Origin: Gaiella sp.
GTDB lineage: Bacteria > Actinomycetota > Thermoleophilia > Gaiellales > Gaiellaceae
DNA length: 64,000 nucleotides
Reading direction: 5' to 3'
Assembly: GCA_046160185.1 (NCBI GenBank)
Contig: JBJXGY010000208.1
Span: forward strand, 1,843-65,842
Part shown: positions 47,970 through 60,829 of the stretch, piece after piece
Layout: each line of letters starts with the position of its first letter
Position numbering within the stretch: position 1 is the stretch's first letter
Notes under the pieces: model-generated
Told to the model about the DNA's origin: nothing
The model's input: the letters and a program-made list of their open reading frames with translations, nothing else
The model's database searches: none
Translations under genes and position numbers: made by a program

Positions 47970-47994
47970 TACCCGCTTTTCGCCTCGGCTACAC
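47970..47994 (-). promoter_or_regulatory. weaker SigB/F-type promoter candidate (GTGT-N16-GGGTAG)
   Basis: Read on the minus strand upstream of the PRC-barrel gene. Confidence 0.35.
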
Positions 47995-48047
47995 CTCACC
48001 GCCGCTTCACGGTACGGTGGGCAGCCCCGCGGCCCTCGCCCGGCGCT

Positions 48048-48072
48048 GTTTGGCTGTGACCCCGACGGGAGA
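48048..48072 (+). promoter_or_regulatory. SigB/F-type promoter candidate (GTTT-N15-GGGAGA)
   Basis: Ends 11 nt upstream of ATG 48084. Confidence 0.4.
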
Positions 48073-48083
48073 AGAGGTCAACG

Positions 48084-48689
48084 ATGACGACGTTCGATCC
48101 GACAAGGAGCGCCGGGGCCGCGGTAGCTGCTACAGCGAGGACGGCCGCCGGCCTGGTGGCGACTGTCGCGCTCGCCTCCCGAAACTGGAATGGCGGTCCG
48201 GGCATCGCAGCGCGAGCGGATGCGATCGGAGAACGGCTGGAAGCACTCAGCAAGGAAGACGCGGTCGCCGTCGCGATGCTGGTTTCCGTCTCGCGCAGCG
48301 ACCTGCGTGAGCCACCGGGCTCGAGCGAGGACTCTCGGCTGGCGGCCCTCGCGGCAGCTCGGCCACCATGCGAGATCGGCGAAGCTGCGCTCGAGATCGC
48401 CGACCTCGCCGACGAGACGATGGAACGCGGCGCCCGCGCCATGCGCGGGGACGCGGTGGTGGCGGGCATGCTCGCACGCGCTGCCGCCCTGGCCGCGGCA
48501 CTCATCGCGGACGAGAATCTCGCCGCCGCCGACGACGTCGACGAGGCCGAAACCGCGGCGCTTCGCGAGCGTGTCGAGTCGGTCCGCCGCGAGCTCGAGA
48601 GCCGGCCGTTTCAGCGAGGCGCGGGCGAAGGCGAGGCGCCGGCTCGTGACGCGCGGGGCGCCGGAGCGTCCCAGTGTCCAGGGCCGTGA
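48084..48689 (+). CDS. cyclodeaminase/cyclohydrolase (FTCD C-terminal-like) family protein
   Basis: All-alpha, Ala-rich sequence resembling FTCD_C proteins. The call is tentative. Confidence 0.45.
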   Translation: MTTFDPTRSAGAAVAATARTAAGLVATVALASRNWNGGPGIAARADAIGERLEALSKEDAVAVAMLVSVSRSDLREPPGSSEDSRLAALAAARPPCEIGEAALEIADLADETMERGARAMRGDAVVAGMLARAAALAAALIADENLAAADDVDEAETAALRERVESVRRELESRPFQRGAGEGEAPARDARGAGASQCPGP

Positions 48690-49530
48690 CTGGCCGGGTG
48701 TGCTGAGGGCGGCGATCCGCGAGTTCCGCGAGGACGACGTCTCGGTAACCGCACAGGCACTGGCGTACTCTCTGTTCCTCGCGATCCCCGCTCTTCTCCT
48801 CGTGCTGCTCGGCGCCTTCTCGCTGCTGGCAAGCGACGATCTGATCGACCGCCTGATCCGGCGTCTGTCAACCGTGATGCCCGTGCAGGCCGCCTCGCTG
48901 CTGCGTGACAGCCTGCGCAGGACATCCGACTCCGCGAGCGGCAGCATCGCGATGACGGCCGTGGGCGGCGCACTCGCTGTCTGGACGACCACGTCGGCCG
49001 CAGCGACGCTGATCGCAGCCCTCACGAAGGCCTACGACAGAGACGACTCTCGGGGCTTCGTACACAGACGACTCGTCGCGATCTCTCTCGTCGCCGCGCT
49101 GGTGGTCGCCGCCGGTCTGGCAGTCGGTCTTGTTGTGCTCGGGCCGCACCTGGAGCGGCTGGCCGGCTCGGCCACGGGCGCGGAGTCGGCCGTCAGCTGG
49201 ATCTGGTGGACCGCCCAGTGGCCGATCCTGGTCGTCGGGCTGGTGGCAGCCTTCTCGGTCGTGCTCCACCTCGGCCCCGACTCGGCGCACCGGGGCTGGC
49301 AGAGCGCGGTGCCCGGGGCGATCGTCGCCACTGGTGTCTGGCTGGCGGCATCGGGTGGATTTGCCGCCTACTCCGCCAACTTCGGCTCGTACGACAAGAC
49401 GTGGGGAACGCTGTCCGCAGTGGTGATCACGCTCATCTGGCTCTGGCTGACGAGCGCTGCGCTGCTCTTCGGCGCGGAGGTCAACGCCGAGGCGCAGAGA
49501 CGAAGCGCCACAGCAGAGATCCCGCAATAG
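48646..49530 (+). CDS. YihY/BrkB family membrane protein
   Basis: AQALAYSLFLAIPALLLVL and the C-terminal WLWLTSAALLFGAEVNAE are typical of the family. The start (GTG 48646) is uncertain. Confidence 0.75.
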   Translation: MTRGAPERPSVQGRDWPGVLRAAIREFREDDVSVTAQALAYSLFLAIPALLLVLLGAFSLLASDDLIDRLIRRLSTVMPVQAASLLRDSLRRTSDSASGSIAMTAVGGALAVWTTTSAAATLIAALTKAYDRDDSRGFVHRRLVAISLVAALVVAAGLAVGLVVLGPHLERLAGSATGAESAVSWIWWTAQWPILVVGLVAAFSVVLHLGPDSAHRGWQSAVPGAIVATGVWLAASGGFAAYSANFGSYDKTWGTLSAVVITLIWLWLTSAALLFGAEVNAEAQRRSATAEIPQ

Positions 49531-49643
49531 GCGAACGCCGGCGGTGCGAGTGAGCCCAGCCGGCCGTCAGGCACGTTGACGCGCTGGACATTCCGACCGG
49601 CAGGTAAGCCAAGAGACGTCGCCGTGAAGCAGGCGCGCCGGTA

Positions 49644-49901
49644 TCACCGGCAGCTCACAGGCTCGTGCCGGCAGCTCGCGAGGCTGGCCGGCCCGTGGCC
49701 TGTCCGGCGGCGGAGCCCGCTATGCCGCAAGCGGCGCCGGGTCGTCCCCGGCGGCGCAGACGACCGGCGGAAGGGCAGCAGGACACCCACTACTCGAAGC
49801 AGCGGCTCGGGATCCGGCTCCGGCAAGGGCTCCGGATCGGGGTCGGGCAGGGGGATCGGCTCGCCGGGAGGACCGGGTGGGAGAGGATCGATGTCGCGCA
49901 T
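49644..49901 (-). CDS. hypothetical acidic proline-rich protein (PLPPGPPGEPIPLPDPDPEPLPEPDPEPLL...)
   Basis: The ATG lies 8 nt downstream of a strict GTTT-N16-GGGAAC box. The Arg-rich C-terminal half makes the 3' extent doubtful. Confidence 0.4.
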   Translation of the reverse strand: MRDIDPLPPGPPGEPIPLPDPDPEPLPEPDPEPLLRVVGVLLPFRRSSAPPGTTRRRLRHSGLRRRTGHGPASLASCRHEPVSCR

Positions 49902-49909
49902 GCCCGATC

Positions 49910-49935
49910 GTTCCCCCGACGGGGCCTGCCGAAAC
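49910..49935 (-). promoter_or_regulatory. SigB/F-type promoter (GTTT-N16-GGGAAC)
   Basis: Minus strand reads tGTTTcggcaggccccgtcggGGGAACgatcgggcATG. Confidence 0.55.
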
Positions 49936-49966
49936 ATTCGGGACGGTCTGCTTGCGCCCGCCTGGA

Positions 49967-50338
49967 TCACCAGCCACGGATCCGCGGCAGGTTGCGGTAG
50001 TAGTCGCCGAGGTTCTCGAACGCGAGGTCCTCTCCCTGGAATGCCTCCTCGACGGTCGGCGCGCCCTCGAGCTCGTCCCGCAGCAGGTCGATCGCCACGA
50101 CCCGACGCTCGTGGTCGACGCTTTCGATGGCGGCTGCCGGCAACACGACATCGCGTTTGTGAAGCCAGCCTCCCGTCTCGACCACGAGATGGGCTGCTCC
50201 GACGGTCTCGTTGGCCCGGTCGACCCTGCCGATCGAGCCGTCGCGACCGACAACCTCGTATCCGGTGAGCCCTGTTGCGCTCGAGCCGCCCTCGAGCAGC
50301 CCTGCACGGAAGCTCCAGATCTCAGTCCGTACGTTCAT
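49967..50338 (-). CDS. PRC-barrel domain protein (123 aa)
   Basis: LTGYEVVGRDGSIGRVDRANE...HLVVETGGWLHKRDVVLPAAAIESVD. GGAGG RBS before ATG 50338. Confidence 0.75.
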   Translation of the reverse strand: MNVRTEIWSFRAGLLEGGSSATGLTGYEVVGRDGSIGRVDRANETVGAAHLVVETGGWLHKRDVVLPAAAIESVDHERRVVAIDLLRDELEGAPTVEEAFQGEDLAFENLGDYYRNLPRIRGW

Positions 50339-50432
50339 CCTTCCTCCTTCTGCAGTTGGCGTTGACGGCCGCCGGCCAGGTGAACAGGAACAGACCCCGC
50401 ACGCACGGAGCCGGTTTTCGATACGACGGCCG

Positions 50433-50458
50433 GTTTGAGGGGTGCCGTGATCGGGCAC
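50433..50458 (+). promoter_or_regulatory. weaker SigB/F-type promoter candidate (GTTT-N16-GGGCAC)
   Basis: Ends 9 nt upstream of ATG 50468. Confidence 0.3.
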
Positions 50459-50467
50459 CGTGGGTGT

Positions 50468-50770
50468 ATGCCCGTCCGAACGAGCGCACCTGAGCAAGAT
50501 GCTTCGCTGCCGACGCTGATCTTTGTCCGCGACGAGACATCGGGGCCGTCTCGCCGCATGGAGAGCCTGGTGGCGTGGATCCGGGTCACGCAGAAGAAAA
50601 GGCTGCGGGTGGTCGACCTGGAAGCGTCGATCAACCCCGTCGCCGTCGAACGGCTTGGCGTCACTGTTGTCCCTTCGCTCGTGCTGATCGACGATGGCGA
50701 GGTCGCGGGCAGGCTCGAGGGCAGGGTCGGCGGCAAAGAGATCGAGGCGCTCATTTCGCGGGCGCTGTAG
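50468..50770 (+). CDS. thioredoxin-fold protein with SGPS in place of CGPC
   Basis: IFVRDETSGPSRRMESLV aligns by eye to the thioredoxin FWAEWCGPCKMIAP, followed by VVPSLVLIDDGEV. Confidence 0.5.
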   Translation: MPVRTSAPEQDASLPTLIFVRDETSGPSRRMESLVAWIRVTQKKRLRVVDLEASINPVAVERLGVTVVPSLVLIDDGEVAGRLEGRVGGKEIEALISRAL

Positions 50771-50771
50771 A

Positions 50772-51185
50772 TCAGGCGCGGCTTGACGGTTCCGGTTTGG
50801 ACAGGACGTGCCGCTCGATCGGCACTCCTTCGAACTCGTCGGGAATGCGGTCGAGCTCACCGGACTCGAGCCAGCTCGCCTCCGTCTCGGGCCTGAGCAC
50901 GACGACCAGCCGGTCGGGACGGTATTCGCGGATCGCATCCTCGACAACCTGGGCCGGGGCATCGGGACGTTCCTCCGCACTGGTGATCGGCGCCGGTGCT
51001 TTCGCCGCCGTCACCTCCGCCAGTCTCGCCGCGTCCGCCCGCGGCTGGTCTTCCGCGTTCGTCAGCCACTGAAGCCTGCTCTGGGTCACGGCAGGGGCGA
51101 TCACGTGCACCTCGTCGCCAGGCGAGACGATCTCGTCCAGCTCGGTGTCGTCAGGCTCCTGGGTGAGAATCAGGACAACGCGCAT
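50772..51185 (-). CDS. hypothetical protein (137 aa)
   Basis: GGAGAAAGGAG RBS and an upstream GTTT-N17-GGGAAC box. No family recognised. Confidence 0.55.
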   Translation of the reverse strand: MRVVLILTQEPDDTELDEIVSPGDEVHVIAPAVTQSRLQWLTNAEDQPRADAARLAEVTAAKAPAPITSAEERPDAPAQVVEDAIREYRPDRLVVVLRPETEASWLESGELDRIPDEFEGVPIERHVLSKPEPSSRA

Positions 51186-51222
51186 CGGGCGGCTCCTTTC
51201 TCCACGACGGTTCCGAGCGTTC

Positions 51223-51249
51223 GGTTCCCGGGCACGGGCCTATCGAAAC
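51223..51249 (-). promoter_or_regulatory. SigB/F-type promoter (GTTT-N17-GGGAAC)
   Basis: Read on the minus strand. It sits back-to-back with the plus-strand box at 51253. Confidence 0.5.
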
Positions 51250-51252
51250 GCC

Positions 51253-51278
51253 GTTTCGGCGCATTCCCTCTCGGGTAC
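51253..51278 (+). promoter_or_regulatory. SigB/F-type promoter of the sigma-factor operon (GTTT-N16-GGGTAC)
   Basis: Read directly. It ends 10 nt upstream of ATG 51289. Confidence 0.55.
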
Positions 51279-51288
51279 CTCGCTTCCG

Positions 51289-51624
51289 ATGATGCGGGCG
51301 CCGATCCTTGCCGGAACGCTCCTCGCTGCCGAGGTTCAGGTGGACGACGGCCGGAGCCTGCCCGTGCGCGACATCATCCTCGATCGCCAGGCGCCCAGGG
51401 CGCTCGGGATCGAGGTTCAGGATCGTTCGCGCTCGATGTTCGTGCCCTGGCTCGCCCTGTCGATCACCAGCGACCGCGTGTCCGCGCTCGGGAGCACGCT
51501 GCAACCTGCGGAGCACTACGCGTTCTACCTCGAGGCAGGCAGGCGAGTCGGGCAGAAAGCGACGTCGTCGGCGCTCCGTCGCGTCACGATCGATCCTGAT
51601 GGTGCTCTCAGCCGGTTTCAGTGA
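51289..51624 (+). CDS. PRC-barrel-like hypothetical protein
   Basis: LLAAEVQVDDGRSLPVRDIILDRQAPRALGIEVQD...VPW fits the PRC-barrel pattern. GTGA-coupled to the STAS gene. Confidence 0.5.
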   Translation: MMRAPILAGTLLAAEVQVDDGRSLPVRDIILDRQAPRALGIEVQDRSRSMFVPWLALSITSDRVSALGSTLQPAEHYAFYLEAGRRVGQKATSSALRRVTIDPDGALSRFQ

Positions 51625-51926
51625 CCGCGCTGGTGGGTACAGAACACAACGTGACGACATTGGTCGCAGCAGCTCGAGAACGCGAGACCGGACCGCAGCT
51701 GTGCGCCGCGCTGGCAGCGGGAGCTCGCGACATCGTGGTCCAGCTCCAAAGTCACGACATGGACGCCGACACGCTCATGCTGCTGTACGACGCGACGAGA
51801 GCGCTGCGCGAGGTCGATGGACGCCTGATCGTCGTCGCCGACGACCCCGGCCTGCGCAGGCTGCTGGCCCTCACGCTGCTCGACCAGACGCTCGATGTCC
51901 GAGATCCGGCGAGCTTCTCCACGTGA
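51621..51926 (+). CDS. STAS-domain protein lacking the phosphorylatable Ser (MDADTL)
   Basis: Aligned by eye to the two other STAS proteins in the window. Confidence 0.55.
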   Translation: MTALVGTEHNVTTLVAAARERETGPQLCAALAAGARDIVVQLQSHDMDADTLMLLYDATRALREVDGRLIVVADDPGLRRLLALTLLDQTLDVRDPASFST

Positions 51927-52012
51927 CTTTGTCAGCTGCGACCGAGCCCAGGTCGGAGATACCCAGCTCCGTCCGCGCCGAACTCGAGCTGGTGCCACAC
52001 TAAGAGGCAGGT

Positions 52013-52771
52013 ATGAGCGTCTTGACCGAGCAGACCCTGGAATCACTGTTACGGGCTTACCGCGAGGACGGCGACATTCGCGCGCGCGACAAGGCGGTGG
52101 AGCGCCTGCTGCCGATGGTACGAGGACTGGCTGCCCGCTACGCAGGCAGAGGCGAGCCCCTGGAGGATCTGGTGCAGGTGGGGTCGATCGGTCTGATCAA
52201 GGCGTTCGACCGCTTCGACCCGGACCGCGGCGTGAACTTCTCCAGCTACGCGATCCCGACGATCATCGGCGAGATCCGGCGGTATTTCCGAGACAAGACC
52301 TGGTCGCTCCACGTGCCTCGCCCGGTCAAGGAGCTGAGCGTGCGCCTGAACAGGATCACCGAAGAGCTCACCGGCAACCTCTCACGTCCGCCCACGGTTG
52401 CCGAGCTCGCGCACGCGTCCGGAGCGAGCGAAGAGGATGTGATCGACGCGCTCGACTGCACCCTGGCCTACTCGACGCGCTCGCTCGACCTGGGCGTCGA
52501 CGGCGATGACGACGAGTCGCTCTCGGAGCTGATCGGCGGACCGGACGAGGCGTTCACGCGAGTGGAGGACACCATCGTCGTGACGGAAACCCTGGCCGGA
52601 CTGGCCGAGCGGGAACGGGAGATCGTCCGGCTCCGTTTCTACGAGGAGATGACGCAGTCTCAAATCGCTGCAGAGCTCGGCATCTCGCAGATGCATGTCT
52701 CTCGGCTTCTTCGCAAGGCGCTCGAGCAGATGCACGCCGGCCAGCAGCGGACAACGGAGGACAGATCATGA
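52013..52771 (+). CDS. RNA polymerase sigma factor, SigB/SigF/SigG subfamily
   Basis: Region 2 LEDLVQVGSIGLIKAFDRFDPDRGVNFSSYAIPTIIGEIRRYFRD and region 4 QSQIAAELGISQMHVSRLLRKAL. Confidence 0.9.
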   Translation: MSVLTEQTLESLLRAYREDGDIRARDKAVERLLPMVRGLAARYAGRGEPLEDLVQVGSIGLIKAFDRFDPDRGVNFSSYAIPTIIGEIRRYFRDKTWSLHVPRPVKELSVRLNRITEELTGNLSRPPTVAELAHASGASEEDVIDALDCTLAYSTRSLDLGVDGDDDESLSELIGGPDEAFTRVEDTIVVTETLAGLAEREREIVRLRFYEEMTQSQIAAELGISQMHVSRLLRKALEQMHAGQQRTTEDRS

Positions 52772-53265
52772 AGCACGTAGTGCAGCTGACGATGCCCGCG
52801 CGGCCTGAGTTTCTGATCCTCGCCCGCCTCGCGCTCACGGGTATCGCTCGCACGACTCCCGCCCTCGACGACGTCACTCTCGCCGACCTCAAGCTCGCGG
52901 TTACGGAAGCATGCGGCAACGCCGCCCGTCACGCGTACGACGGAGAGGCAGGGCCGGTGCACATCCAGTACACGCTGGAAGAAGGCCACATCGAGATCGT
53001 GGTCGCCGACGAGGGCACCGGCCGCGACCTCCCAGCCGACGCACCCACTGACCATCTGCTCATGCTCAAGGACGGGCTGGTCGAGTCGGGCATGGGGCTC
53101 TCGATCATCCGCGCCATCGTCGACGAGACGGAGATCGAGTCTCGGACGAACGGTCAGCAGGGGGCGGTGGTCACCATGCGGAAGCGCCTCGCTACGCCGG
53201 GGCCGGAGGATTCTCCGCGAGGGGACTCTCAGTCCTCGCTCCCAGAGCGCATGCCACCGGGATGA
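52768..53265 (+). CDS. anti-sigma factor serine kinase (RsbW/SpoIIAB-like)
   Basis: N-box TEACGNAARHA, G1 DEGTG and G2 GMGLSII. ATGA overlap with the sigma gene. Confidence 0.85.
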   Translation: MKHVVQLTMPARPEFLILARLALTGIARTTPALDDVTLADLKLAVTEACGNAARHAYDGEAGPVHIQYTLEEGHIEIVVADEGTGRDLPADAPTDHLLMLKDGLVESGMGLSIIRAIVDETEIESRTNGQQGAVVTMRKRLATPGPEDSPRGDSQSSLPERMPPG

Positions 53266-53405
53266 GCGCCGGCACCCTGGTGGCTCTCGTCGCGGCCGCC
53301 GTGTCGTTGGCGGGGATCGCACTCTGGCTCGGCCTCCTGCTGTGGGCGGCACGGGAAGACGGTCGCAGCCAGCGTGAGTACGACCGTCAAGCTGGAGGAG
53401 ACTGA
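53262..53405 (+). CDS. 47-aa single-pass membrane peptide (MSAGTLVALVAAAVSLAGIALWLGLLLWAAREDGRSQREYDRQAGGD)
   Basis: My own translation, since it is below the ORF-track cutoff. Its ATG overlaps the rsbW-like stop (ATGA), and GC3 is high. Confidence 0.5.
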   Translation: MSAGTLVALVAAAVSLAGIALWLGLLLWAAREDGRSQREYDRQAGGD

Positions 53406-53415
53406 CCCAGGAGCG

Positions 53416-53760
53416 TCAGGACGTTGCCGTGCGCGAACCGGGCTCGCTCAGCCCAGACTCTCTTAGCGGCAGAACCTGGTCGTGGGCCGTCAGCTCAAAG
53501 ATCCTCCGGGCCGGGCCGGCCGGCAGCACGACGTGGAACATCGTTCCAGCCTCGCGTGCCCGCCGGAACGCGCCGACGATCACCCCCAGGGCCGTCGAGT
53601 CGAGGAACGTGGCACCCGAGAGGTCGCACACGAGAGCGGAAGCCTCGCGTTCGGCGTGCAGCGCGACGCGCAGGTCGGGCGCGGCGAAGGCGTCGAGCTC
53701 CCCGCTCGCGACGACCGACGATCTCTCGTGTGCGCGTTCGCTGGTGACCCTGTAGCTCAT
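53416..53760 (-). CDS. STAS-domain anti-sigma-factor antagonist (RsbV-like)
   Basis: LVCDLSGATFLDSTALGVIVGA carries the conserved DS phospho-site. Confidence 0.8.
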   Translation of the reverse strand: MSYRVTSERAHERSSVVASGELDAFAAPDLRVALHAEREASALVCDLSGATFLDSTALGVIVGAFRRAREAGTMFHVVLPAGPARRIFELTAHDQVLPLRESGLSEPGSRTATS

Positions 53761-53863
53761 TCGGCGGCCGATCGCATTCCGCCTTCAAGACTGACAGGTA
53801 TGGCGGCACACCGCCGCCGCCGAGGAAACAGACCTTCGCTCGTCAAAGAACCCCCCTGAATGT

Positions 53864-53898
53864 CTCTGGCCGGATCCCCAGCTGGGATCCGGCCAGAG
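53864..53898 (-). terminator. 15-bp perfect hairpin (CTCTGGCCGGATCCC-cagct-GGGATCCGGCCAGAG)
   Basis: Base pairing checked position by position. It lies 82 nt downstream of the small membrane protein gene (53980..54198). The minus strand continues ...GGGGGGUUCUUUG. Confidence 0.5.
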
Positions 53899-53979
53899 CG
53901 GATCGCGTTCGACGCGTGCATCCCGCGCCGCTGACCGGATCCCACCGGGTTCCCGTCAGAGCCGCGGTGTGGGCTCCCG

Positions 53980-54198
53980 TCAGACCCGTGGATCGTGTTC
54001 GACACGCTCGACACGTCGCTCCGTGGTGAATCCACCCCAACTCGACCAGAACACCAGCGACAGCAGCAGCCCGACGATGCCCACGATCAGCAGGATTACG
54101 CCAATCGTCTGGACTTCGAGCCCCGACACCTCGGCGTTCACGGCCCACGTGAGGATGGCTCCGGCGGCGACTAGAATCAAGCTTGCAGAGATGCCCAT
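53980..54198 (-). CDS. small two-TM membrane protein (DUF6458-like)
   Basis: MGISASLILVAAGAILTWAV...VILLIVGIVGLLLSLVFW. Confidence 0.65.
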   Translation of the reverse strand: MGISASLILVAAGAILTWAVNAEVSGLEVQTIGVILLIVGIVGLLLSLVFWSSWGGFTTERRVERVEHDPRV

Positions 54199-54235
54199 GT
54201 CGTTCCTTTCGTTGACGTTGACCTGTGGTCAGGCT

Positions 54236-54261
54236 GTTCCCTGTTCCCACCCCGCTGAAAC
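54236..54261 (-). promoter_or_regulatory. SigB/F-type promoter (GTTT-N16-GGGAAC)
   Basis: Minus strand reads GTTTcagcggggtgggaacaGGGAAC, 37 nt upstream of ATG 54198. Confidence 0.55.
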
Positions 54262-54269
54262 GTCGACGG

Positions 54270-54298: not shown

Positions 54299-54682
54299 GT
54301 GACAATGGCCGGTGAGCCGAGCGCGGGCGTGACCGAATTCTCTGCCGACGTCGAGTGGACGGGCGATGGGGTCTTTCTGCTCACGTTGACGGGCGAGGTC
54401 GATCTCCATACCGCGCCGGAGGTACGCGAGCGCCTCACGGAGGCGAGCATGAAGAGAGCGAACCTCGCCGTGGTCGACCTCTCGAGCGTCACCTTCATCG
54501 ATTCGATGACACTCGGAGTCCTGCTCGGCGCGAACAAGCGTCTCCGCGCCTGCGGCGCCCAGTTACGCGTGGTTGTTCCGACCGACGGGGGAATCCGCAG
54601 GATCTTCGAGATCACGCTTCTCGACAAGATCTTCCTGCTCTACGAGACGCGCGCCGAGGCACTCTCGCGGGCCGAAGCGTGA
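54299..54682 (+). CDS. STAS-domain anti-sigma-factor antagonist (start GTG 54299 or ATG 54305)
   Basis: VVDLSSVTFIDSMTLGVLLGA carries the conserved DS. Confidence 0.8.
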   Translation: MTMAGEPSAGVTEFSADVEWTGDGVFLLTLTGEVDLHTAPEVRERLTEASMKRANLAVVDLSSVTFIDSMTLGVLLGANKRLRACGAQLRVVVPTDGGIRRIFEITLLDKIFLLYETRAEALSRAEA

Positions 54683-55041
54683 ACGACGTCATAGGTCTCA
54701 GCCTTTCGCATCGCGACCGCCTCACGCCGGTGGCGATGCTGGTCGCCGGCGGTCTCGGGAGCCGTGTGGATCTGGACATCGACCGGATCGACGACCTTCA
54801 GCTCGCGCTCGGCTTGGTGCTTTCGACGCTTGCCCCCGACGAGCGCGCCGAGCTCGAGTTCGAACCGGCGGAGCACGGCGTCACATGTCGCATCGGGGGA
54901 CTCGGGCCGGCCGTGCGCGAAGTGTTGCCATCACTGGAACGGCTCGTTCACCACGCTCGGCTCGAAGGGGAGCAGGCACACACGATCACGTTTCAGGTCG
55001 AGAAACGGCCTGCGCAGGGACTAGCGCCCCCCGCTGCCTGA
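54679..55041 (+). CDS. degenerate RsbW-like protein (120 aa) lacking N-box and G-box residues
   Basis: GTGA-coupled to the STAS gene. Its N-terminal 50 aa align by eye to the RsbW-like protein at 52768, with RIDDLQLAL against TLADLKLAV. The TEACGNAARH position reads GLVLSTLAPD. Confidence 0.5.
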   Translation: MNDVIGLSLSHRDRLTPVAMLVAGGLGSRVDLDIDRIDDLQLALGLVLSTLAPDERAELEFEPAEHGVTCRIGGLGPAVREVLPSLERLVHHARLEGEQAHTITFQVEKRPAQGLAPPAA

Positions 55042-55111
55042 GCCCGCCGTCCCAGCAAGATCATCGCATTGGCCATCGCCCCGGCATCTGGAGGGGGCTC
55101 GCTCGCTTTGC

Positions 55112-55137
55112 GTTTGCCCCCAGGGCGTCCCGGGAAG
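55112..55137 (+). promoter_or_regulatory. SigB/F-type promoter (GTTT-N16-GGGAAG)
   Basis: Read directly, 34 nt upstream of ATG 55172. Confidence 0.55.
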
Positions 55138-55171
55138 GCAACCAGCATCCAGGGAAACGAGGAGGCCAGCT

Positions 55172-55696
55172 ATGGCAACAGTCGAGAAGTCGATCAACGT
55201 CGCCGTTCCGGTTTCGACGGCGTACAACCAGTGGACGCAGTTCACGGAGTTTCCGTCCTTCATGGATCACGTACTCGAGGTTCAGCAGCTCGACGACCGG
55301 CATCTGCACTGGGTCGCCGAGATCGGTGGCGAGCGTCAGGAATGGGACGCGGAGATCGTGGAGCAACGGCCTGATCGCGTGATCGAATGGCGGGGGACGG
55401 GGGCCAAGCGCAACGCGGGTCGGGTCGAGTTCGCCGGCGAGAACGGAATGACGCGCGTCACGCTCCGTATGGAGTACGAGCCGGCGGGCATGAAGCAGAG
55501 AGCCGGAGCGGCCCTCGGACTCGATGCTATGGGGGTCGAGCACGACCTCGAGCGGTTCAAGGAGATGATCGAGTCGCGAGGCGGCGAGACGGGCGCCTGG
55601 CGCGGGGAGATCCACGGGGGCAAGGCGAAGCCGCCGCTGCGTGACCCACTCGCGGAGGCTGAGAGCCGCAATCCGCTGCCACCCGCCGCTCCATAG
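55172..55696 (+). CDS. SRPBCC (cyclase/dehydrase) family protein
   Basis: VEKSINVAVPVSTAYNQWTQFTEFPSFM...HWVAEIGGERQEWDAEIVEQRPDRVIEW. Confidence 0.8.
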   Translation: MATVEKSINVAVPVSTAYNQWTQFTEFPSFMDHVLEVQQLDDRHLHWVAEIGGERQEWDAEIVEQRPDRVIEWRGTGAKRNAGRVEFAGENGMTRVTLRMEYEPAGMKQRAGAALGLDAMGVEHDLERFKEMIESRGGETGAWRGEIHGGKAKPPLRDPLAEAESRNPLPPAAP

Positions 55697-55752
55697 ATGC
55701 CGAAGGCCGCCGCCGCCCGCTGCACAGCGCGGCAGGGCGGTGGCGGCGCAGG

Positions 55753-55965
55753 TCACACGCTGGTGTTCTCGAGCTGCTCCGGCCCGACCGGCGAAGGAAC
55801 GGGAGCAGGCTCCGGCACGACGACCGGGCCGGGCGCAGGACTGGGTACCGGCTCACGCTCGGGCACGATCACTGGACCAGGCGCAGGGCTAGGGGCGGGC
55901 TCAGGGTCCGGCACGTAGACCGGCCCTGGCTCCGGACGGGGGGCAGGATCAGGCTTGACGGGCAT
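55753..55965 (-). CDS. proline-rich repeat protein (70 aa)
   Basis: The ATG lies 2 nt after the SRPBCC stop. It has three 16-aa repeats (VPDPEPAPSPAPGPVI / VPEREPVPSPAPGPVV / VPEPAPVPSPVGPEQL). Confidence 0.5.
   Translation of the reverse strand: MPVKPDPAPRPEPGPVYVPDPEPAPSPAPGPVIVPEREPVPSPAPGPVVVPEPAPVPSPVGPEQLENTSV
55814..55957. repeat. three tandem imperfect 48-nt repeats (coding, Pro-rich)
   Basis: The repeat-unit marker GGCACG(A/T) recurs at 55814, 55862 and 55910. Confidence 0.7.
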
Positions 55966-55967
55966 GG

Positions 55968-56384
55968 TCACTCCAACGACTCCAGTCGTCGTTTCAGGTT
56001 CTCGAGATCCTTCTGCAACCTGCACTTGCCCAGTCGGACCGCGGTGCCGGCGCCCTCGAGAGCTCCTTCCGGGCGGAGCCGGTCGTGCACCGTCACCCGC
56101 GTGACGTTCTCGCCTTCTGAGGCGAGCTCGAACCGAGTGTCATGGGGACCGCTGCCGCGCGCGTGCCATTCGAGGCGCTCGTCGTCGTCCATGGCCACGA
56201 TCTCCGCCTCCCACTCCACGCGCCCGCCGCCGAGGTCGGCCCTCCAGTGCAGCGTCTCCCCCACCTTCCGCACCTCCTCCACGCGGTCCATCCATCGCGA
56301 GTACGCGCCGAAGTTGAGCAGGGTAAACCAGACCGACGGACGGGGAGCGCCGATCACGATGGACGCGTCGATCGTCGTGGACAC
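55968..56384 (-). CDS. SRPBCC family protein
   Basis: IDASIVIGAPRPSVWFTLLNFGAYSRWM...HWRADLGGGRVEWEAEIV. It is a paralog of the 55172 gene. Confidence 0.8.
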   Translation of the reverse strand: MSTTIDASIVIGAPRPSVWFTLLNFGAYSRWMDRVEEVRKVGETLHWRADLGGGRVEWEAEIVAMDDDERLEWHARGSGPHDTRFELASEGENVTRVTVHDRLRPEGALEGAGTAVRLGKCRLQKDLENLKRRLESLE

Positions 56385-56393
56385 GAACTACGT

Positions 56394-56419
56394 GTTCCCT
56401 GCAGCCGCTATCCGGAAAC
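56394..56419 (-). promoter_or_regulatory. SigB/F-type promoter (GTTT-N16-GGGAAC)
   Basis: Minus strand reads GTTTccggatagcggctgcaGGGAAC, ending 9 nt before GTG 56384. Confidence 0.55.
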
Positions 56420-56447
56420 ACTGTCGGTGGAAGGCGCGTCGTACGGC

Positions 56448-57332
56448 CTACTCCGGGATGCGCTCCCCGTATGCGTCACGTCTGGCCGGCCGCCGGTGGC
56501 GTCGCAAAGGCGGCCTCGCCTGTCCGGCCGCACCCTCGCTACCTGCACTCGGCGGCCCGGCAACCACCGCGGGCTCGATCGCCCGTGCGCCGTTGGCGAC
56601 CTCTCGCCTTTCCAACGTCGTCGCCGTGATGCCCTCGAGGGCGGTGAGTGTTGCGAACCCGGCGGCGAGCAGTGCCGTGTCGCATTCGGGGTCGAGCTCA
56701 TGACCTGTGTCCCTGTATTCGAGCTGCAGGTTCGTGGCGCCCCTTCGACCGACGGCGACCCGAACTGCACCGAAGCGATCGAGCCGGGCCCAGCGCAGCG
56801 CGGTCTCGGCGGCTACCTGCTCCGGAACGTTCAGGCTGAGGACGGTGGCCTTGGGGGCGTCCACCAGTAGATCGAGAGCGAGATGCACCGGCCCTGCGAT
56901 GCGTTCCCAGCGCATCGGCCATGCGACCGCCGCGCTCACGGCGAGGGCGGAGACACCGAAACTGGCGGCGGTAAGCGCGGCGCCGACCGTGCCCGAGTGC
57001 AGGATGGCATGCCCGGTGTTGGCACCTATGTTGGCACCCGAGAGAACGAGGTCGGGTTCCTCACCCAACGCCCCCCGGCATGCGACGAGGGCGGCCAACC
57101 CCGGCGGGCCGTTCAGCGTGTACGCGGCCGCGGCGCCCCCGACGTCCCGGGCGGCCGGACGCAACTCGAGCGTATCGCCACTCGCACAGCGCCAGATGGC
57201 CGCACTCGATCCACTGACGTCCTGGTCGGGAGCGATCACCGTTACCTCCCAGCCCCGCTCGACCACGACGCGGGTCAAAGCGTCCAGGCCTTCGGACTCG
57301 ATCCCGTCGTCGTTTGTGACTACGACCTTCAT
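56448..57332 (-). CDS. surE: 5'/3'-nucleotidase SurE
   Basis: MKVVVTNDDGIESEGL N-terminus and GANIGANTGHAILHSGTVGAA. Confidence 0.8.
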   Translation of the reverse strand: MKVVVTNDDGIESEGLDALTRVVVERGWEVTVIAPDQDVSGSSAAIWRCASGDTLELRPAARDVGGAAAAYTLNGPPGLAALVACRGALGEEPDLVLSGANIGANTGHAILHSGTVGAALTAASFGVSALAVSAAVAWPMRWERIAGPVHLALDLLVDAPKATVLSLNVPEQVAAETALRWARLDRFGAVRVAVGRRGATNLQLEYRDTGHELDPECDTALLAAGFATLTALEGITATTLERREVANGARAIEPAVVAGPPSAGSEGAAGQARPPLRRHRRPARRDAYGERIPE

Positions 57333-58318
57333 CCTTGATCCACCTCCAGTACGACGCGCTCCGCGAGCGCGCTGATTGCCTCGGCATGCCCGCTTCCCGA
57401 ACCGTGCCGGGTGACCGCCATCGCCCCGGCGGCGGCGCCCTGGCGAAGCACATCGGCCCAACCGTGACCCTTTGCGAGTGCGAGTCCGAACGCTCCGCTC
57501 ATCGAGTCACCTGCACCGCGGGCGTCCGCCACCTCCAGCTCCGGTGGCCGCACGACCAGGCGGCGCCCGCCCACGGCAGCCAGAAGCCCTGCCTCGCCGA
57601 GCGAGACAACCACGTTGTCCGCACCGGCGGACTGGAGTTCCGCGATCGCCCGCCAGAGCTCCTTGTCCGAAGCATCTCTCGCGCGGCCGTCTCGCGTCAG
57701 CTCCTCGGAGCTGACCTTGAGCAGGTGCACTCCCCCCTCGAGCGCCTCGGTGAGTTGCCCGGCGGAGAGGTCGGCGACCGTCTTGACATCCGAGGCCGCG
57801 AGATCGGCGGCGAGCCGCCGGTACATCCCGTCGGGCACCACGGTCGTCGACCCGTGACTGCCGGCAAAGACACAGGTTTTCGCGGCGAGAGCCTCGGCGA
57901 GCGTCAGCGAGTACAACTCGTCCGAATCGTGGCGGTTGAGCGAAGGGGGCGGCGATTCGAAGATGAGCTGTCGCTCCCCGTTGCGGCGATCCTGAACCCA
58001 GACGGGGGAGAAACCGGGTACGTCGACGGCGCGGGCCTCGATGCCCTCCTCGCCGAGCAGGAACCGAAGCACCGCGCCCGTCTCGCCGCCGAGCGGCGAG
58101 CAGAGCGCGGGCGTGCCCCCGAGCGTCACGATCATGCGCGCCATCCACACGCCCTGCCCGCCGGCATGAAGGTGAACCTCTTCGTCCCCCTCTTCGTTGC
58201 GCTCGATGGTGACGGTGAGCAGGGTGACCGGAGCGAAGACACAGACATCCGGGCCGCCCCGGGTCTCGTTCTCGCCCGTTCGCGCCGCTCCCTCGGGCGC
58301 GCTTTCGTGCTCAGTCAT
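57329..58318 (-). CDS. PfkB-family carbohydrate kinase
   Basis: C-terminal DARGAGDSMSGAF motif and ribokinase-like pattern. ATGA-coupled to surE. Confidence 0.7.
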   Translation of the reverse strand: MTEHESAPEGAARTGENETRGGPDVCVFAPVTLLTVTIERNEEGDEEVHLHAGGQGVWMARMIVTLGGTPALCSPLGGETGAVLRFLLGEEGIEARAVDVPGFSPVWVQDRRNGERQLIFESPPPSLNRHDSDELYSLTLAEALAAKTCVFAGSHGSTTVVPDGMYRRLAADLAASDVKTVADLSAGQLTEALEGGVHLLKVSSEELTRDGRARDASDKELWRAIAELQSAGADNVVVSLGEAGLLAAVGGRRLVVRPPELEVADARGAGDSMSGAFGLALAKGHGWADVLRQGAAAGAMAVTRHGSGSGHAEAISALAERVVLEVDQG

Positions 58319-58327
58319 CTAGATGTA

Positions 58328-58353
58328 CTTGCCGGAACGGCGATTTCACAAAC
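58328..58353 (-). promoter_or_regulatory. weaker SigB/F-type promoter candidate (GTTT-N16-GGCAAG)
   Basis: Ends 9 nt before ATG 58318. Confidence 0.35.
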
Positions 58354-58494
58354 CGGCGGCGGGATTATCCGCGTGCCCGAGGTCGACCTGTCCGGAGGCA
58401 CGGTGTCGCACAGGGTGGGTGGGAAGCGCGACATCGCGAAGCGGTGCAGCTCAATTGGCGGACGAGCAGCTACCCGGTGAACACGATGGACGGA

Positions 58495-58520
58495 GGAGGC
58501 GTTCGATCTCAAACGCCTCC
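58495..58520 (-). terminator. hairpin (GGAGGCGTT-cgatctca-AACGCCTCC) downstream of the PRC-barrel operon
   Basis: 9-bp perfect stem, 19 nt after the stop at 58539. Confidence 0.4.
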
Positions 58521-58538
58521 CCCCGATTGGAAGCGGGG

Positions 58539-58811
58539 CTAGCCTGGCCAGACCGGTAGCGAAGCCAGTCGCTCCGCCGCGAGATCGATCGTGACGCGAC
58601 CCGGCTCGATGCCGGTGACGGTGGCGGCGTCGACAAAACGCGCCGCCCCGTCACCCGCGAGTGCGATGCCGCTGAAGATGTCGAGCTCCTCGTCGCTGAC
58701 GATCTCCGCCACCTGGCCGAGCACGTCGCCTGCCGCTGAGACGACGATCCAGCCCTTCTCGATCGCGTACCACGACACCGGATTTCTCGGGTCACCGGCC
58801 ACGTTGCTCAC
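58539..58811 (-). CDS. PRC-barrel/DUF2171-like protein (90 aa)
   Basis: GWIVVSAAGDVLGQVAEIVSDEELDIFSGIALAGDG...VTGIEPGRVTIDL. GTG 58811 overlaps the upstream peptide's stop (GTGA). Confidence 0.6.
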   Translation of the reverse strand: MSNVAGDPRNPVSWYAIEKGWIVVSAAGDVLGQVAEIVSDEELDIFSGIALAGDGAARFVDAATVTGIEPGRVTIDLAAERLASLPVWPG

Positions 58812-58948
58812 ACCGAAGACCGGCCGCCCGCGAAGCTGAACAGGGCGACGATCACCGCGACGATGAGAATCAGGAACAGGAACTTGGATACAGCCACCCC
58901 GCCGCCGACGGCGAGAAGCACCAGAAGCAGGATCAGTAGCCAGAGCAT
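58808..58948 (-). CDS. 46-aa highly hydrophobic peptide (MLWLLILLLVLLAVGGGVAVSKFLFLILIVAVIVALFSFAGGRSSV)
   Basis: GGAGG lies 6 nt upstream of ATG 58948. It is below the ORF-track cutoff as an independent ORF. Confidence 0.55.
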   Translation of the reverse strand: MLWLLILLLVLLAVGGGVAVSKFLFLILIVAVIVALFSFAGGRSSV

Positions 58949-59177
58949 TTCGAACCTCCGATCGCAGATTGACAAGCCATCTCTTCCCCGTTTCGTGGCC
59001 TGCCAATCCCAGATGCCCTGCCATGACAGTCTGCGCCCGCCCGGTACGGACGGGAAAAGCCTCCGGGACCCTCGCACAGGCCGTGGTGCGCGCTCCTGCG
59101 CGCTCCTGTTCACGTTGCTCCGGTGGCCTCCGGGGATGTGGTGACCGGTGTAGCTCGCGGAGCGGATCGGAACGCGG

Positions 59178-59357
59178 TCAGGCCGGTGGTGTGTCCTTCC
59201 CCGCCCACCGGCTGGGCGGGTCTGACGCCGGAAACGACTGATCCGCTGTCTCGTCGACCGCGGCTTCCTCGTCCGCCTCGGCATCGGTCTCGATGTCCGC
59301 GTGCGCCGTCTGCGTTGGCCGCCGCTCGGGAGCGTCGTCTCTCGGTGACTTGCTCAT
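59178..59357 (-). CDS. 59-aa acidic protein with SFPASDPP motif
   Basis: MSKSPRDDAPERRPTQTAHADIETDAEADEEAAVDETADQSFPASDPPSRWAGKDTPPA. There is no SD, but a strict GTTT-N16-GGGAAT box ends 9 nt upstream. I recall the motif from small conserved bacterial proteins. Confidence 0.5.
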   Translation of the reverse strand: MSKSPRDDAPERRPTQTAHADIETDAEADEEAAVDETADQSFPASDPPSRWAGKDTPPA

Positions 59358-59366
59358 CCAGAGGTG

Positions 59367-59392
59367 ATTCCCGCCGGCCGTCGGCGCGAAAC
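59367..59392 (-). promoter_or_regulatory. SigB/F-type promoter (GTTT-N16-GGGAAT)
   Basis: Minus strand reads GTTTcgcgccgacggccggcGGGAATcacctctggATG, checked base by base. Confidence 0.55.
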
Positions 59393-59472
59393 CGCCCGGC
59401 GAACAGGTGCCTCCTTCGGGTGCCCAACCGTTCGGCTCGTGTGACGACGCAGTAAGCACTCCGTAAGAGGGG

Positions 59473-59497
59473 GTTGCCCCAGGGATGAACGGGGAAC
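59473..59497 (+). promoter_or_regulatory. weaker SigB/F-type promoter candidate (GTTG-N15-GGGAAC)
   Basis: Lies 56 nt upstream of ATG 59554. Confidence 0.3.
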
Positions 59498-59553
59498 ACG
59501 CACCCAACGCGATTCGCGCTGCGGATCGCACGTCACCTGACAGGAGGTGCTTG

Positions 59554-60717
59554 ATGGATACGCCAAACAGCACAACAGCGTCCCGGCGAGGACGCACGTG
59601 GACGCTGGCGGGGGTCACAGCCGCCCTCACGCTCGGTGCGGCGTTGCTGGCGCTGCTGGCACCGGTCTCCGGCAGCGCGGTGAGCCAGGCCTTGCCGGAC
59701 AACACGGCGGAGCCGCGGATCTCCGGTTCGGCCGTGGAAGGCGGACTGCTGACCACCACCAACGGGAAGTGGACCGGTGATCCGACATCGTTCGAGTACG
59801 AATGGCGGCGTTGTCCGGCGGGCGGCGGTGCGTCGGACGCCTCCAACTGCGAGCGCATCGACGGTGCCACTTCGGGGAGCTACACGCTGAGAGAGGCTGA
59901 CGTCGGCAAGCGGATGCGGGCCAGGGTCACCGCCACCAACGCTGACGGATCGGCGACGGCAACGTCCAACGCAACCGCGGCCGTGCGCTCCGCCACACCA
60001 ACCGGGGCCCCGACGAACACCGCGCTTCCCGCGGTCTCGGGCGCGCCGATCGTCGGCCGCACGGTGCGGTCGAGCGCCGGCACCTGGACGGGGCGGCAGC
60101 CGATCACGTACGCGTTCCAATGGCTGCGATGCGACCAGGGCGGTAACGACTGCGTCACTCTCGCGAATGCGACCGACGATGCGTACGTCGTGCGTGAGGG
60201 CGACGCGGGAAAGACTCTCCGTGCGCGTGTGCAGGCGTCCAACTCGGCCGGGACCGCCAGAGCGCTTTCGAAGCCGACGGCCGCCGTCACCGGTAACGGT
60301 GGCCCGGAAGGGGCGATCAGGCTGCCGAGCGGCGAGACCTCGATCCCCGCTAGCTCCGTGCCCGCCACGGAGCGATTGGTCGTAGACCGCGTCGAGTTCA
60401 CACCGTCCGTGGTCAGGTCGCGCACCGAGACAATCCAGTCGCGCATCAAGGTCAAGGACACTCGCGGCTACGTCGTGCGCGACGCGATCGTCTTCATCCG
60501 CTCGACGCCGGTCGTGACGAGCGGAGGCGACGACCGCCGGACCGGACAGGACGGGTGGATCACCTACGACCTCGAGCCGCAACGGGACTTCCCGGCACTC
60601 GATCCGAGGTACGCGGTGCAGTTCTACGTCAAGGCGTACCGCGCGGGTGATCCGGTGCTCGCAGGTGTCGCGGGCACCCGGCTCGTGCAGGTGCAGCTCG
60701 GCGGCAGCACCGACTGA
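59554..60717 (+). CDS. secreted protein with two Ig-like repeats
   Basis: GGAGG RBS and a signal/TM segment. Two repeats of about 90 aa follow the pattern G..L....G.WTG.P....Y.W.RC...G..C..I.GAT...Y.....D.GK..RARV.A.N..G. Confidence 0.7.
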   Translation: MDTPNSTTASRRGRTWTLAGVTAALTLGAALLALLAPVSGSAVSQALPDNTAEPRISGSAVEGGLLTTTNGKWTGDPTSFEYEWRRCPAGGGASDASNCERIDGATSGSYTLREADVGKRMRARVTATNADGSATATSNATAAVRSATPTGAPTNTALPAVSGAPIVGRTVRSSAGTWTGRQPITYAFQWLRCDQGGNDCVTLANATDDAYVVREGDAGKTLRARVQASNSAGTARALSKPTAAVTGNGGPEGAIRLPSGETSIPASSVPATERLVVDRVEFTPSVVRSRTETIQSRIKVKDTRGYVVRDAIVFIRSTPVVTSGGDDRRTGQDGWITYDLEPQRDFPALDPRYAVQFYVKAYRAGDPVLAGVAGTRLVQVQLGGSTD

Positions 60718-60732
60718 GCCCCAGGACGACAT

Positions 60733-60769
60733 GGCGGCCCGGCTCTCCACCGAGGGGTGCCGGGCCGCC
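60733..60769 (+). terminator. hairpin after the secreted-protein gene (11-bp stem GGCGGCCCGGC/GCCGGGCCGCC, 15-nt loop)
   Basis: Perfect inverted repeat 16 nt after the stop. Confidence 0.4.
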
Positions 60770-60803
60770 AACTGCGCCTTTCCCCACACGGTTCAACGGA
60801 CGT

Positions 60804-60829
60804 GTTTGGAGAGGGTCGGAAACGGGAAT
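60804..60829 (+). promoter_or_regulatory. SigB/F-type promoter (GTTT-N16-GGGAAT)
   Basis: Read directly, 24 nt upstream of GTG 60854. Confidence 0.55.

Follow-up and report, generated by a model that had tools for sequence, protein, structure and literature searches.

The promoters of the general-stress sigma factors SigF and SigB are described in several bacterial lineages, and these descriptions are the natural comparison for the system considered here, a cluster of GTTT-N16-GGG[A/T]A motifs around a sigma factor gene (52013-52771) in a 64 kb stretch of Gaiella sp. DNA (contig JBJXGY010000208.1, hereafter the window). In Mycobacterium smegmatis, the SigF consensus is GTTT-N14-19-GGGTA with many instances of GTTT-N16-GGGAA, and a dense run of SigF-dependent genes (MSMEG_1766-1804) sits beside sigF, much like the cluster in the window (PMC4694148). 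The promoter form in the window, GGGAA included, is the same as that of SigF in M. smegmatis and Mycobacterium tuberculosis (UsfX/RsbW, RsfA/RsfB). The content of the M. smegmatis regulon also overlaps with genes in the window or its relatives, including SurE, a transglycosylase-associated protein, a carboxylate-amine ligase, RsbW/STAS proteins, and trehalose/glycogen genes (PMC4694148, PMC6448022). The Bacillus subtilis SigB consensus is GTTTAA-N12-14-GGG[A/T]A[A/T], and SigB and its eight paralogues in Streptomyces coelicolor use -10 hexamers GGGTAC and GGGAAC with a GTTT-type -35 element, as observed here (PMC8346170). SigB of B. subtilis, Staphylococcus aureus, and Listeria belongs to the same family as the window sigma factor (TIGR02980), with matching boxes and partner switching of the RsbV/RsbW type.

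The window contains nine strong sites that are very probably promoters of this SigB/SigF type (group 3, general stress), and the product of the sigma gene 52013-52771 is their most likely reader. Scanning both strands of the window identified nine matches to GTTT-N16-GGG[A/T]A, compared to 0.43 expected from dinucleotide-preserving shuffles. The stricter pattern GTTT-N16/17-GGGAAB had seven exact matches against an expectation of 0.12, in keeping with an earlier sequence-only reading that had estimated fewer than 0.5 chance occurrences per 64 kb, and none of 100 dinucleotide shuffles reached seven. That reading had placed eight of the nine sites at the correct coordinates and overlooked the ninth, 51615-51640(+); it had also miscounted the spacer of one site as N17 (given as 51249-51223), which is N16 at 51224-51249, such that the spacer is N16 in all nine. 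All nine occur within 10.9 kb (49910-60829), a density that, judged inside the 64 kb, corresponds to a scan-statistic p of about 5e-6. Based on a gene map derived from a codon log-likelihood model, in which 89% of the window is coding and 11% non-coding, eight of the nine sites are intergenic (binomial p = 1.8e-7); this is the intergenic-versus-coding enrichment check that had been proposed, run within the window. The sole non-intergenic site (51615-51640) lies in the 3' end of the sigma operon's first gene. Every strong site is oriented toward a start codon 8-38 nt downstream. A position weight matrix (PWM) built on the sites of relatives alone and then applied to the window scored the nine sites at 17-22 bits, where 0.2 matches of >=16 bits are expected in simulated sequence. 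The strong sites combine a -35 GTTT and a -10 GGG[T/A]A separated by a gap within 14-17 nt, direction toward genes, and a frequency above chance, and they agree with the M. smegmatis SigF, B. subtilis SigB, and S. coelicolor SigB-homologue consensus sequences, as had been proposed for the motif. The fourth position of the hexamer is variable, with seven GGGAA and two GGGTA sites in the window and 19 of each in the relatives. No sigma-70 consensus promoters were found in the cluster.

The protein encoded at 52013-52771 has the properties expected of the reader of such sites. It scores 272.5 bits on TIGR02980 (curated cut-off 234.35), with Pfam regions r2, r3, and r4 only and region 1.1 absent, and falls short of the equivalog and subfamily cut-offs for Bacillus SigB (TIGR02941, 212.9 vs 315), SigF (NF005514, 254.6 vs 372), and the sporulation factors SigF/SigG (193.9 vs 321). 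By these scores it is a member of the TIGR02980 family and the ortholog of no named factor. Among proteins of solved structure, the closest are S. aureus sigma-B (8x6g chain H, 3e-53) and sporulation sigma-F (1l0o chain C). In the 8X6G open complex of S. aureus sigma-B, R241, S235, M237, and Q236 contact the G, T, T, and T of the -35 element and R244 the backbone; R110, R100, and R97 recognize the initial GGG of the -10 element in double-stranded form; F79 and F86 form the pocket into which the A of hexamer position 5 is flipped; and position 4 has no specific contact (PMC11156646). When these contacts were transferred to the window protein through a HMMER alignment, the DNA-contact residues matched those of sigma-B, with nine of 11 identical (R67, R90, R93, R103, S225, Q226, M227, R231, and R234). 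These include all five residues that contact GTTT (R231, S225, M227, Q226, and R234) and the three that contact GGG (S. aureus R97, R100, and R110, equivalent to R90, R93, and R103), while in the -10 pocket F86 corresponds to Y79. The SigB/SigF-type sigma gene noted at 52013 is borne out by both the family score and the retained contact residues. The invariant positions of the motif (GTTT, GGG, and A at position 5) and its free position 4 would be exactly those predicted from the sigma-B structure. By homology, the -35 GTTT would be recognized by region 4.2 of the window factor and the -10 GGG, as double-stranded DNA, by the junction between regions 2 and 3, which would also flip out the A at position 5; the occurrence of both A and T at position 4 would follow because that position is not read. 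Sigma matches from a protein search fall among the Gaiellaceae, with the best at 98%, then 73%, then 61-71% identity, and a scan of species-representative genomes detected no sigma relative above 52% identity.

Conservation among relatives supports the same assignment. The comparison included one close relative (L078) and five divergent relatives (L080-L084) with sigma factors 65-73% identical, the named ones belonging to the Gaiellaceae. Across the alignment, L078 is 96.5% identical to the window in DNA; at eight sites all 80 box positions are identical compared to 110 of 128 spacer positions (Fisher p = 1e-4), and other intergenic DNA is 95% identical. Strict sites number 8, 7, 11, 5, and 7 per about 20 kb in L080, L081, L082, L083, and L084, respectively, compared to <0.1 expected. 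Over six genomes, 43 of 47 sites are intergenic (16% background) and for 32 of the 47 a gene is predicted to start on the same strand no more than 150 nt away (9% background). In the window and in each of the six relatives checked, a site lies ahead of the sigma operon, which supports the autoregulation that had been proposed. At greater distance, loci from groups that include Acidimicrobiales, Armatimonadota, and Planctomycetales have a site 450-780 nt upstream of the sigma gene, and an Acidimicrobiales chromosome segment (L055) has eight sites in 20 kb.

The targets of the sites recur as well. Beyond the sigma operon, found in all genomes, they include DUF6458, in many cases accompanied by a transglycosylase-associated protein and a STAS gene, as well as the pair of a STAS gene and a 120-aa protein gene, SRPBCC, a PRC-like 123-aa protein, a thioredoxin-like protein, DUF892, CBS, and an operon of a small open reading frame (ORF), CorA, and a GAF-SpoIIE-HATPase_c_2 protein. 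DUF6458 orthologs are preceded by a site in L080, L082, L083, and L084; the L080 ortholog (56% identical) of the conserved hypothetical 50772-51185 also has a site (9687-9712), as does an SRPBCC gene of L082 (183-209). The L081 ortholog of the second SRPBCC protein (55968-56384) has GGGAAG 9 nt before its ATG. The first 52 aa of the Pro/Asp/Glu-rich ORF 49644-49901 are kept in L078, and in L080 the ATG of a homologue follows a site at 8 nt. It had been suggested that the motif validates several ORFs of 60 aa or less, which is partly supported: the 59-aa ORF 59178-59357 has a G+C content at third codon positions (GC3) of 0.80 and a single distant homologue was found. A strict site also precedes a small ORF starting with MYIGGG, divergent from and upstream of the sigma-operon region, in L082 (8820-8845(-)), L083 (9318-9343(-)), and L084 (9103-9129(-)); no counterpart of this ORF was seen in the window.

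Activity of the sigma factor is likely to be set by partner switching. A kinase with a HATPase_c_2 domain adjoins the sigma gene and is translationally coupled to it, and STAS genes lie around the pair; RsbW and SpoIIAB models match this protein at 5e-25 to 1.5e-18 (RsbW 4.8e-25), below their equivalog cut-offs. The phosphorylatable Ser in the D-S-x-G/A loop is present in the STAS proteins 53416-53760 and 54305-54682 and not in the STAS-like protein of the operon (51621-51926), which in alignment has Ala in the phospho-Ser column (D-A-D for D-S-x), as does its counterpart in L082 (9619-9951). L082 is the relative with 68% sigma identity. The mycobacterial SigF system has a non-phosphorylatable antagonist, RsfA. 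In the proposed scheme, the co-transcribed RsbW-like kinase would hold the sigma factor, and the unphosphorylated STAS proteins 53416-53760 and 54305-54682 would release it. Positive feedback would arise from the promoter at 51253-51278, for which the boxes are identical in L078 and the spacer has diverged, together with the internal promoter at 51615-51640. One counterpart of the internal promoter is found in L082 (9584-9609), where it lies 9 nt before the STAS-like start and, like the window site, within the preceding gene; another is found in L084 (9571-9596), 9 nt before the start of an unannotated gene preceding sigma. Within Firmicute operons a sigB-dependent promoter lies upstream of rsbV, to which the internal promoter before the window antagonist gene can be likened. 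The sigma factor would further drive at least seven neighbouring units encoding small stress-type proteins (DUF6458, two SRPBCC proteins, Pro-rich acidic peptides, MgtC, and the conserved hypothetical), with the PRC-barrel, thioredoxin-like, and STAS genes and pfkB-surE as probable further targets. The dependence of these units on the factor, their transcription starts, and their stress inducibility are all predicted from the sequence.

Several other features of the region touch the switch. A 47-aa very hydrophobic ORF overlapping the stop codon of RsbW, 53262-53408(+), has a 100% identical counterpart in L078. The first gene of the operon is 84% identical in L078. The 120-aa protein coupled to the STAS gene 54305-54682 has no family match and no similarity to RsbW, and a word-indexed search with it recovered only the L078 counterpart; it is kept after a STAS gene in L080 and L081, L083 and L084 show matches to it at the equivalent position, and in an Acidimicrobiales contig (L025) it lies immediately upstream of the sigma gene. 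An antisense ORF at 54640-54876 is spurious, its place being taken by the conserved opposite-strand gene. In three relatives (L082 4039-8766, L083 4385-9246, and L084 4117-9036) a site drives a small ORF, behind which comes a giant GAF-SpoIIE(PP2C)-HATPase_c_2 protein, with a CorA gene between the two in L082 and L084. The order of MgtC and a MASE1-GAF protein in the window compared to CorA and GAF-SpoIIE in the relatives hints that Mg2+-transport genes are linked to the input phosphatase of the switch. The two canonical STAS genes are inverted paralogues (arms 53569-53632 and 54469-54532, 73% complementary), as are the two SRPBCC genes (arms 55304-55361 and 56195-56252, 79% complementary), which points to local duplications inside the cluster.

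Set against the described systems, the locus differs in several respects. Compared to mycobacterial SigF, the lineage is the class Thermoleophilia (Gaiellales), as judged from the named closest homologues; the gene order is STAS-like, sigma, RsbW, rather than rsbW then sigF; GGGAA outnumbers GGGTA by seven to two; and the system here is known from sequence alone. Unlike Firmicute SigB, no stressosome (RsbR/S/T) genes were seen in the window, the targets are clustered rather than scattered, many transcripts are predicted to be leaderless, which is rare in Firmicutes, and the anti-sigma gene comes after the sigma gene, not before it. Streptomyces has many cross-recognizing paralogues tied to differentiation, whereas the 64 kb analysed here has one such sigma gene. 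The distinctive elements are the lineage, the gene order, the Ser-less STAS-like protein of the operon, and the very high local promoter density, all within known variation. Mycobacterial SigF and Firmicute SigB already provide documented cases of the motif, its spacing, autoregulation, and clustering; no concept is changed and a specialist would not be surprised. It is conceivable, though rather doubtful, that the Gaiellales stress sigma factor represents a distinct SigB/F architecture, in which an unusually large share of the regulon is held in one compact conserved cluster (about 15 promoters in 13 kb, half of them leaderless) together with a variant partner switch. Such a switch may combine the Ser-to-Ala STAS-like protein, made from the internal promoter, with the 120-aa protein coupled to a canonical STAS protein, and may feed back onto Mg2+-transport genes (MgtC here and CorA in relatives) and a fused GAF-PP2C-kinase input protein. 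A literature search combining Gaiellales with anti-sigma and stress terms returned, among the matches listed, nothing on Gaiellales sigma-factor regulation.

A number of observations weigh against the reading of the cluster as promoters of the local sigma factor under partner switching. One of the residues of the -10 pocket differs, with S. aureus F79 replaced by R72. No recognizable site was found upstream of the STAS gene 53416-53760 (start 53760(-)) or the PRC-like gene 49967-50338 (start 50338(-)); orthologs of the latter, the 123-aa PRC-like protein, have strict sites in L081 and L082. No PP2C (SpoIIE-type) phosphatase is present in the window, where the MASE1-GAF protein from 61912 is cut by the window end, and in the relatives GAF-SpoIIE-HATPase_c_2 proteins adjoin the sigma operon. 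The six weaker variants of the motif that had been proposed all exist, yet none is individually significant, as they score 9-13.6 bits, a range in which 4-10 chance matches are expected per window; only their position beside start codons backs them. The orthologs of two of their targets have strict sites, the thioredoxin-like gene 50468-50770 in L083 and the STAS gene 54305-54682 in L081 and L082.

Further points on this side are that the nine S. coelicolor SigB homologues cross-recognize one promoter type (PMC8346170) and that L084 has two r2-r3-r4 sigma genes 7 kb apart, and because of these the local factor is unproven as the sole reader. With 64 kb of the genome in view, a SigB/F-family paralogue encoded at another locus could read the sites mainly or additionally, leaving the local factor as one of several readers. 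This is an unlikely account, given that in the window, as in all five divergent relatives, the sites are packed around the sigma gene, with a site before the sigma operon in each, and that the DNA-contact residues of 52013-52771 fit the motif.

Spacing relative to the start codon divides the promoters into two groups (Table 1). In the short-spaced group, the hexamer ends 8-10 nt before the start codon and there is no room for a Shine-Dalgarno sequence between the two; this agrees with the sequence-only reading at each of the seven starts it had listed (49901, 50468, 51289, 54305, 56384, 58318, and 59357). S1-mapped starts of S. coelicolor SigB-type promoters lie 8-11 nt after the hexamer (PMC8346170), and many promoters in the M. 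smegmatis SigF table are 8-11 nt from the annotated start codon (PMC4694148). Given the Streptomyces distances, a start codon at the 9th-11th nt after the hexamer coincides with the expected transcription start. Over six genomes, 15 of 47 sites have an ATG or GTG 8-10 nt past the hexamer compared to a 3.5% background (p = 3.5e-11), about a nine-fold excess, counting only codons that open an ORF of >=40 codons with GC3 >=0.75. The prediction that the short-spaced genes are leaderless is well founded, and in about half of the units the A or G of the start codon would be the first transcribed base. Were the promoters real and the true starts further downstream behind short leaders, these genes would not be leaderless; the STAS-like gene has an alternative coupled GTG at 51621 upstream of the 'leaderless' GTG at 51651, and the length of the Pro-rich ORF differs from its L078 counterpart. 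That version is improbable in view of the nine-fold excess, of short-spaced codons that are the first in-frame starts of conserved ORFs (SRPBCC 56384, pfkB 58318, and L081 15917), and of Shine-Dalgarno sequences that all long-spaced genes have and the short-spaced genes do not have between box and start. Leaderless mRNAs are also common in Actinobacteria (PMC3898074, PMC4633059). For the STAS-like gene, both of its candidate starts could be used, with GTG 51621, which overlaps the upstream stop, on the long transcript and GTG 51651 on the internal transcript.

It is very improbable that the bipartite motif is a transcription-factor binding site or part of a dispersed repeat instead of a promoter. 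The -35 boxes of the divergent promoters 51224-51249 and 51253-51278 are 3 bp apart and form an inverted repeat, CGAAAC-GCC-GTTTCG (51244-51258), whose 6-bp arms could resemble an operator. This arrangement is kept in L078 and absent in L080, which has 124 bp between its two sites. There is no similarity past the two boxes and no repeat family over the sites, the spacers diverge freely in L078 with the boxes fixed, and the sites keep a strict gene-directed orientation at promoter-like distances. Chance accumulation of a G+C-rich pattern, favoured by nothing besides the chance-range scores of the weak variants, can be set aside, as it is rejected by orders of magnitude for the nine strong sites through the shuffle counts, intergenic placement, PWM scores, and relatives.

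For the SigB/SigF-type promoters proposed here, the value lies in a ready promoter model, validated by comparison with relatives, for the general-stress sigma factor of the Gaiellales/Thermoleophilia, which are abundant and barely cultured soil Actinomycetota. Combined with complete genomes, this model would make the regulon predictable, including unannotated small and leaderless genes, and a deep branch of the Actinobacteria would share the GTTT/GGG[A/T]A promoter code and leaderless stress transcripts, widening the range known for both.

Table 1. Promoter sites, start-codon spacing, and genes of the sigma factor cluster (window coordinates; distances are counted from the -10 hexamer).
Feature	Position	Strand	Remarks
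Strong site GTTT-N16-GGGAAC	49910-49935	-	8 nt before ATG 49901 of Pro/Asp/Glu-rich small ORF 49644-49901
Strong site GTTT-N16-GGGAAC	51224-51249	-	21.7 bits; target 50772-51185, leader with AAAGGAG
Strong site GTTT-N16-GGGTAC	51253-51278	+	20.6 bits; sigma operon, 10 nt before ATG 51289
Strong site GTTT-N16-GGGTAC	51615-51640	+	18.8 bits; 10 nt before in-frame GTG 51651 of STAS-like gene
Strong site GTTT-N16-GGGAAC	54236-54261	-	DUF6458 small membrane protein 53980-54198, leader with AAAGGAA
Strong site GTTT-N16-GGGAAG	55112-55137	+	SRPBCC protein 55172-55696, leader with GAGGAGG
Strong site GTTT-N16-GGGAAC	56394-56419	-	9 nt before GTG 56384; SRPBCC 55968-56384 then Pro-rich ORF 55753-55965
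Strong site GTTT-N16-GGGAAT	59367-59392	-	9 nt before ATG 59357 of 59-aa ORF 59178-59357
Strong site GTTT-N16-GGGAAT	60804-60829	+	MgtC, start GTG 60854 preceded by GAGGA
Weak variant GTGT-N16-GGGTAG	47969-47994	-	12.1 bits; PRC-barrel gene, ATG 47923, GAGGAG
Weakest variant GTTT-N15-GGGAGA	48048-48072	+	9.2 bits, chance range; 11 nt before ATG 48084 (FTCD_C-like gene + BrkB/YihY)
Weak variant GTTT-N16-GGGCAC	50433-50458	+	13.6 bits, not significant alone; 9 nt before ATG 50468 (thioredoxin-like)
Weak variant GTTT-N16-TGGTAA	54270-54295	+	13.4 bits; 9 nt before ATG 54305 (STAS + coupled 120-aa gene)
Weak variant GTTT-N16-GGCAAG	58328-58353	-	11.6 bits; 9 nt before ATG 58318 (pfkB-surE operon, 56448-58318)
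Weak variant GGTT-N16-GGGAAC	59472-59497	+	13.0 bits; Ig-like protein, GGAGG, ATG 59554
Start 8 nt after hexamer	49901
Starts 9 nt after hexamer	50468, 54305, 56384, 58318, 59357		50468, 54305, and 58318 belong to weak sites
Starts 10 nt after hexamer	51289, 51651
Starts 24-38 nt after hexamer	51185, 54198, 55172, 60854		Shine-Dalgarno AAAGGAG, AAAGGAA, GAGGAGG, GAGGA
PRC-barrel protein	47483-47923	-	PRC domain 3e-14
FTCD_C-like protein + BrkB/YihY	48084-49530	+	family searches
Pro/Asp/Glu-rich small ORF	49644-49901	-
PRC-like protein, 123 aa	49967-50338	-	E = 0.0013-0.023
Thioredoxin-like protein	50468-50770	+
Conserved hypothetical, 137 aa	50772-51185	-	divergent from sigma operon; kept in L078, L080, L081
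Sigma operon	51289-53265	+	weakly PRC-like, STAS-like, sigma, RsbW-like kinase; then 47-aa membrane ORF
First operon gene, weakly PRC-barrel-like	51289-51624	+	111 aa; PRC match E = 0.065; 84% identical in L078
STAS-like protein	51621-51926	+	TIGR00377 1.6e-5, below cut-off
SigB/SigF/SigG-family (group 3) sigma factor	52013-52771	+	252 aa; TIGR02980 + Pfam r2, r3, r4
RsbW-like anti-sigma serine kinase	52768-53265	+	HATPase_c_2 4.7e-27; start overlaps sigma stop (ATGA)
STAS anti-sigma antagonist	53416-53760	-	canonical phospho-Ser motif FLDS (FLDST)
DUF6458 small membrane protein	53980-54198	-
STAS anti-sigma antagonist	54305-54682	+	TIGR00377 72.4 bits vs cut-off 53.45; canonical FIDS (FIDSM)
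Coupled 120-aa protein	54679-55041	+	overlaps stop of STAS 54305-54682 (GTGA)
SRPBCC	55172-55696	+
SRPBCC + Pro-rich repeat ORF	55753-56384	-
pfkB-surE	56448-58318	-
Small ORFs	58539-59357	-
Ig-like protein	59554-60717	+
MgtC	60854-61537	+
MASE1-GAF protein	61912 onward (to 64000)	+	cut by window end

The gene map of the region was assembled from family searches plus conservation in the relatives. The segment 48000-62000 has a G+C content of 66-69%, compared to 69-74% in most of the remaining window and 1-4 points under the window mean (about 70%), with lower per-gene codon-model scores, many short genes, and 23% non-coding DNA compared to 11% overall. A horizontally acquired island was considered and rejected on the basis that the core (sigma, RsbW, STAS, DUF6458, and thioredoxin-like genes) recurs around the sigma gene in five divergent relatives. 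The only tRNA in the window (Cys, 38587-38657) is 9 kb from the cluster, no flanking repeats were found at the cluster, and no integrase occurs among the scanned window products. A known plasmid was likewise rejected, the plasmid search returning only a 64-nt SRPBCC match. Three long ORFs (49967-50980, 58808-59284, and 48078-49025) are spurious and are replaced by conserved genes on the other strand or in another frame.

Among the small proteins of the cluster, PRC-barrel-like sequences recur, with one clear case (47483-47923) and three weak ones (49967-50338, 51289-51624, and 58539-58811, the last at E = 0.19). The 137-aa protein 50772-51185 has no family match. The 46-aa ORF 58808-58948(-) is very hydrophobic, and a guess that it belongs to the lmo0937 family was not confirmed. 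The Pro/Asp/Glu-rich ORFs 49644-49901 and 55753-55965 are related, each lies downstream of a strong site, and their products look like disordered acidic peptides; the second includes three 48-nt tandem repeats (55795-55955) encoding 16-aa units. A near-perfect 35-nt palindrome (CTCTGGCCGGATCCCAGCTGGGGATCCGGCCAGAG) at 53864-53898, about 80 nt downstream of the DUF6458 gene and without a T tract, may be a terminator or processing hairpin. Lastly, the short ORF 61570-61740(-) matches the C-terminal 46 residues of trehalose-6-phosphate synthase (Glyco_transf_20, 2.6e-5) and looks like a gene remnant, because full-length otsA-type genes are found near the sigma cluster in L080 and L083.

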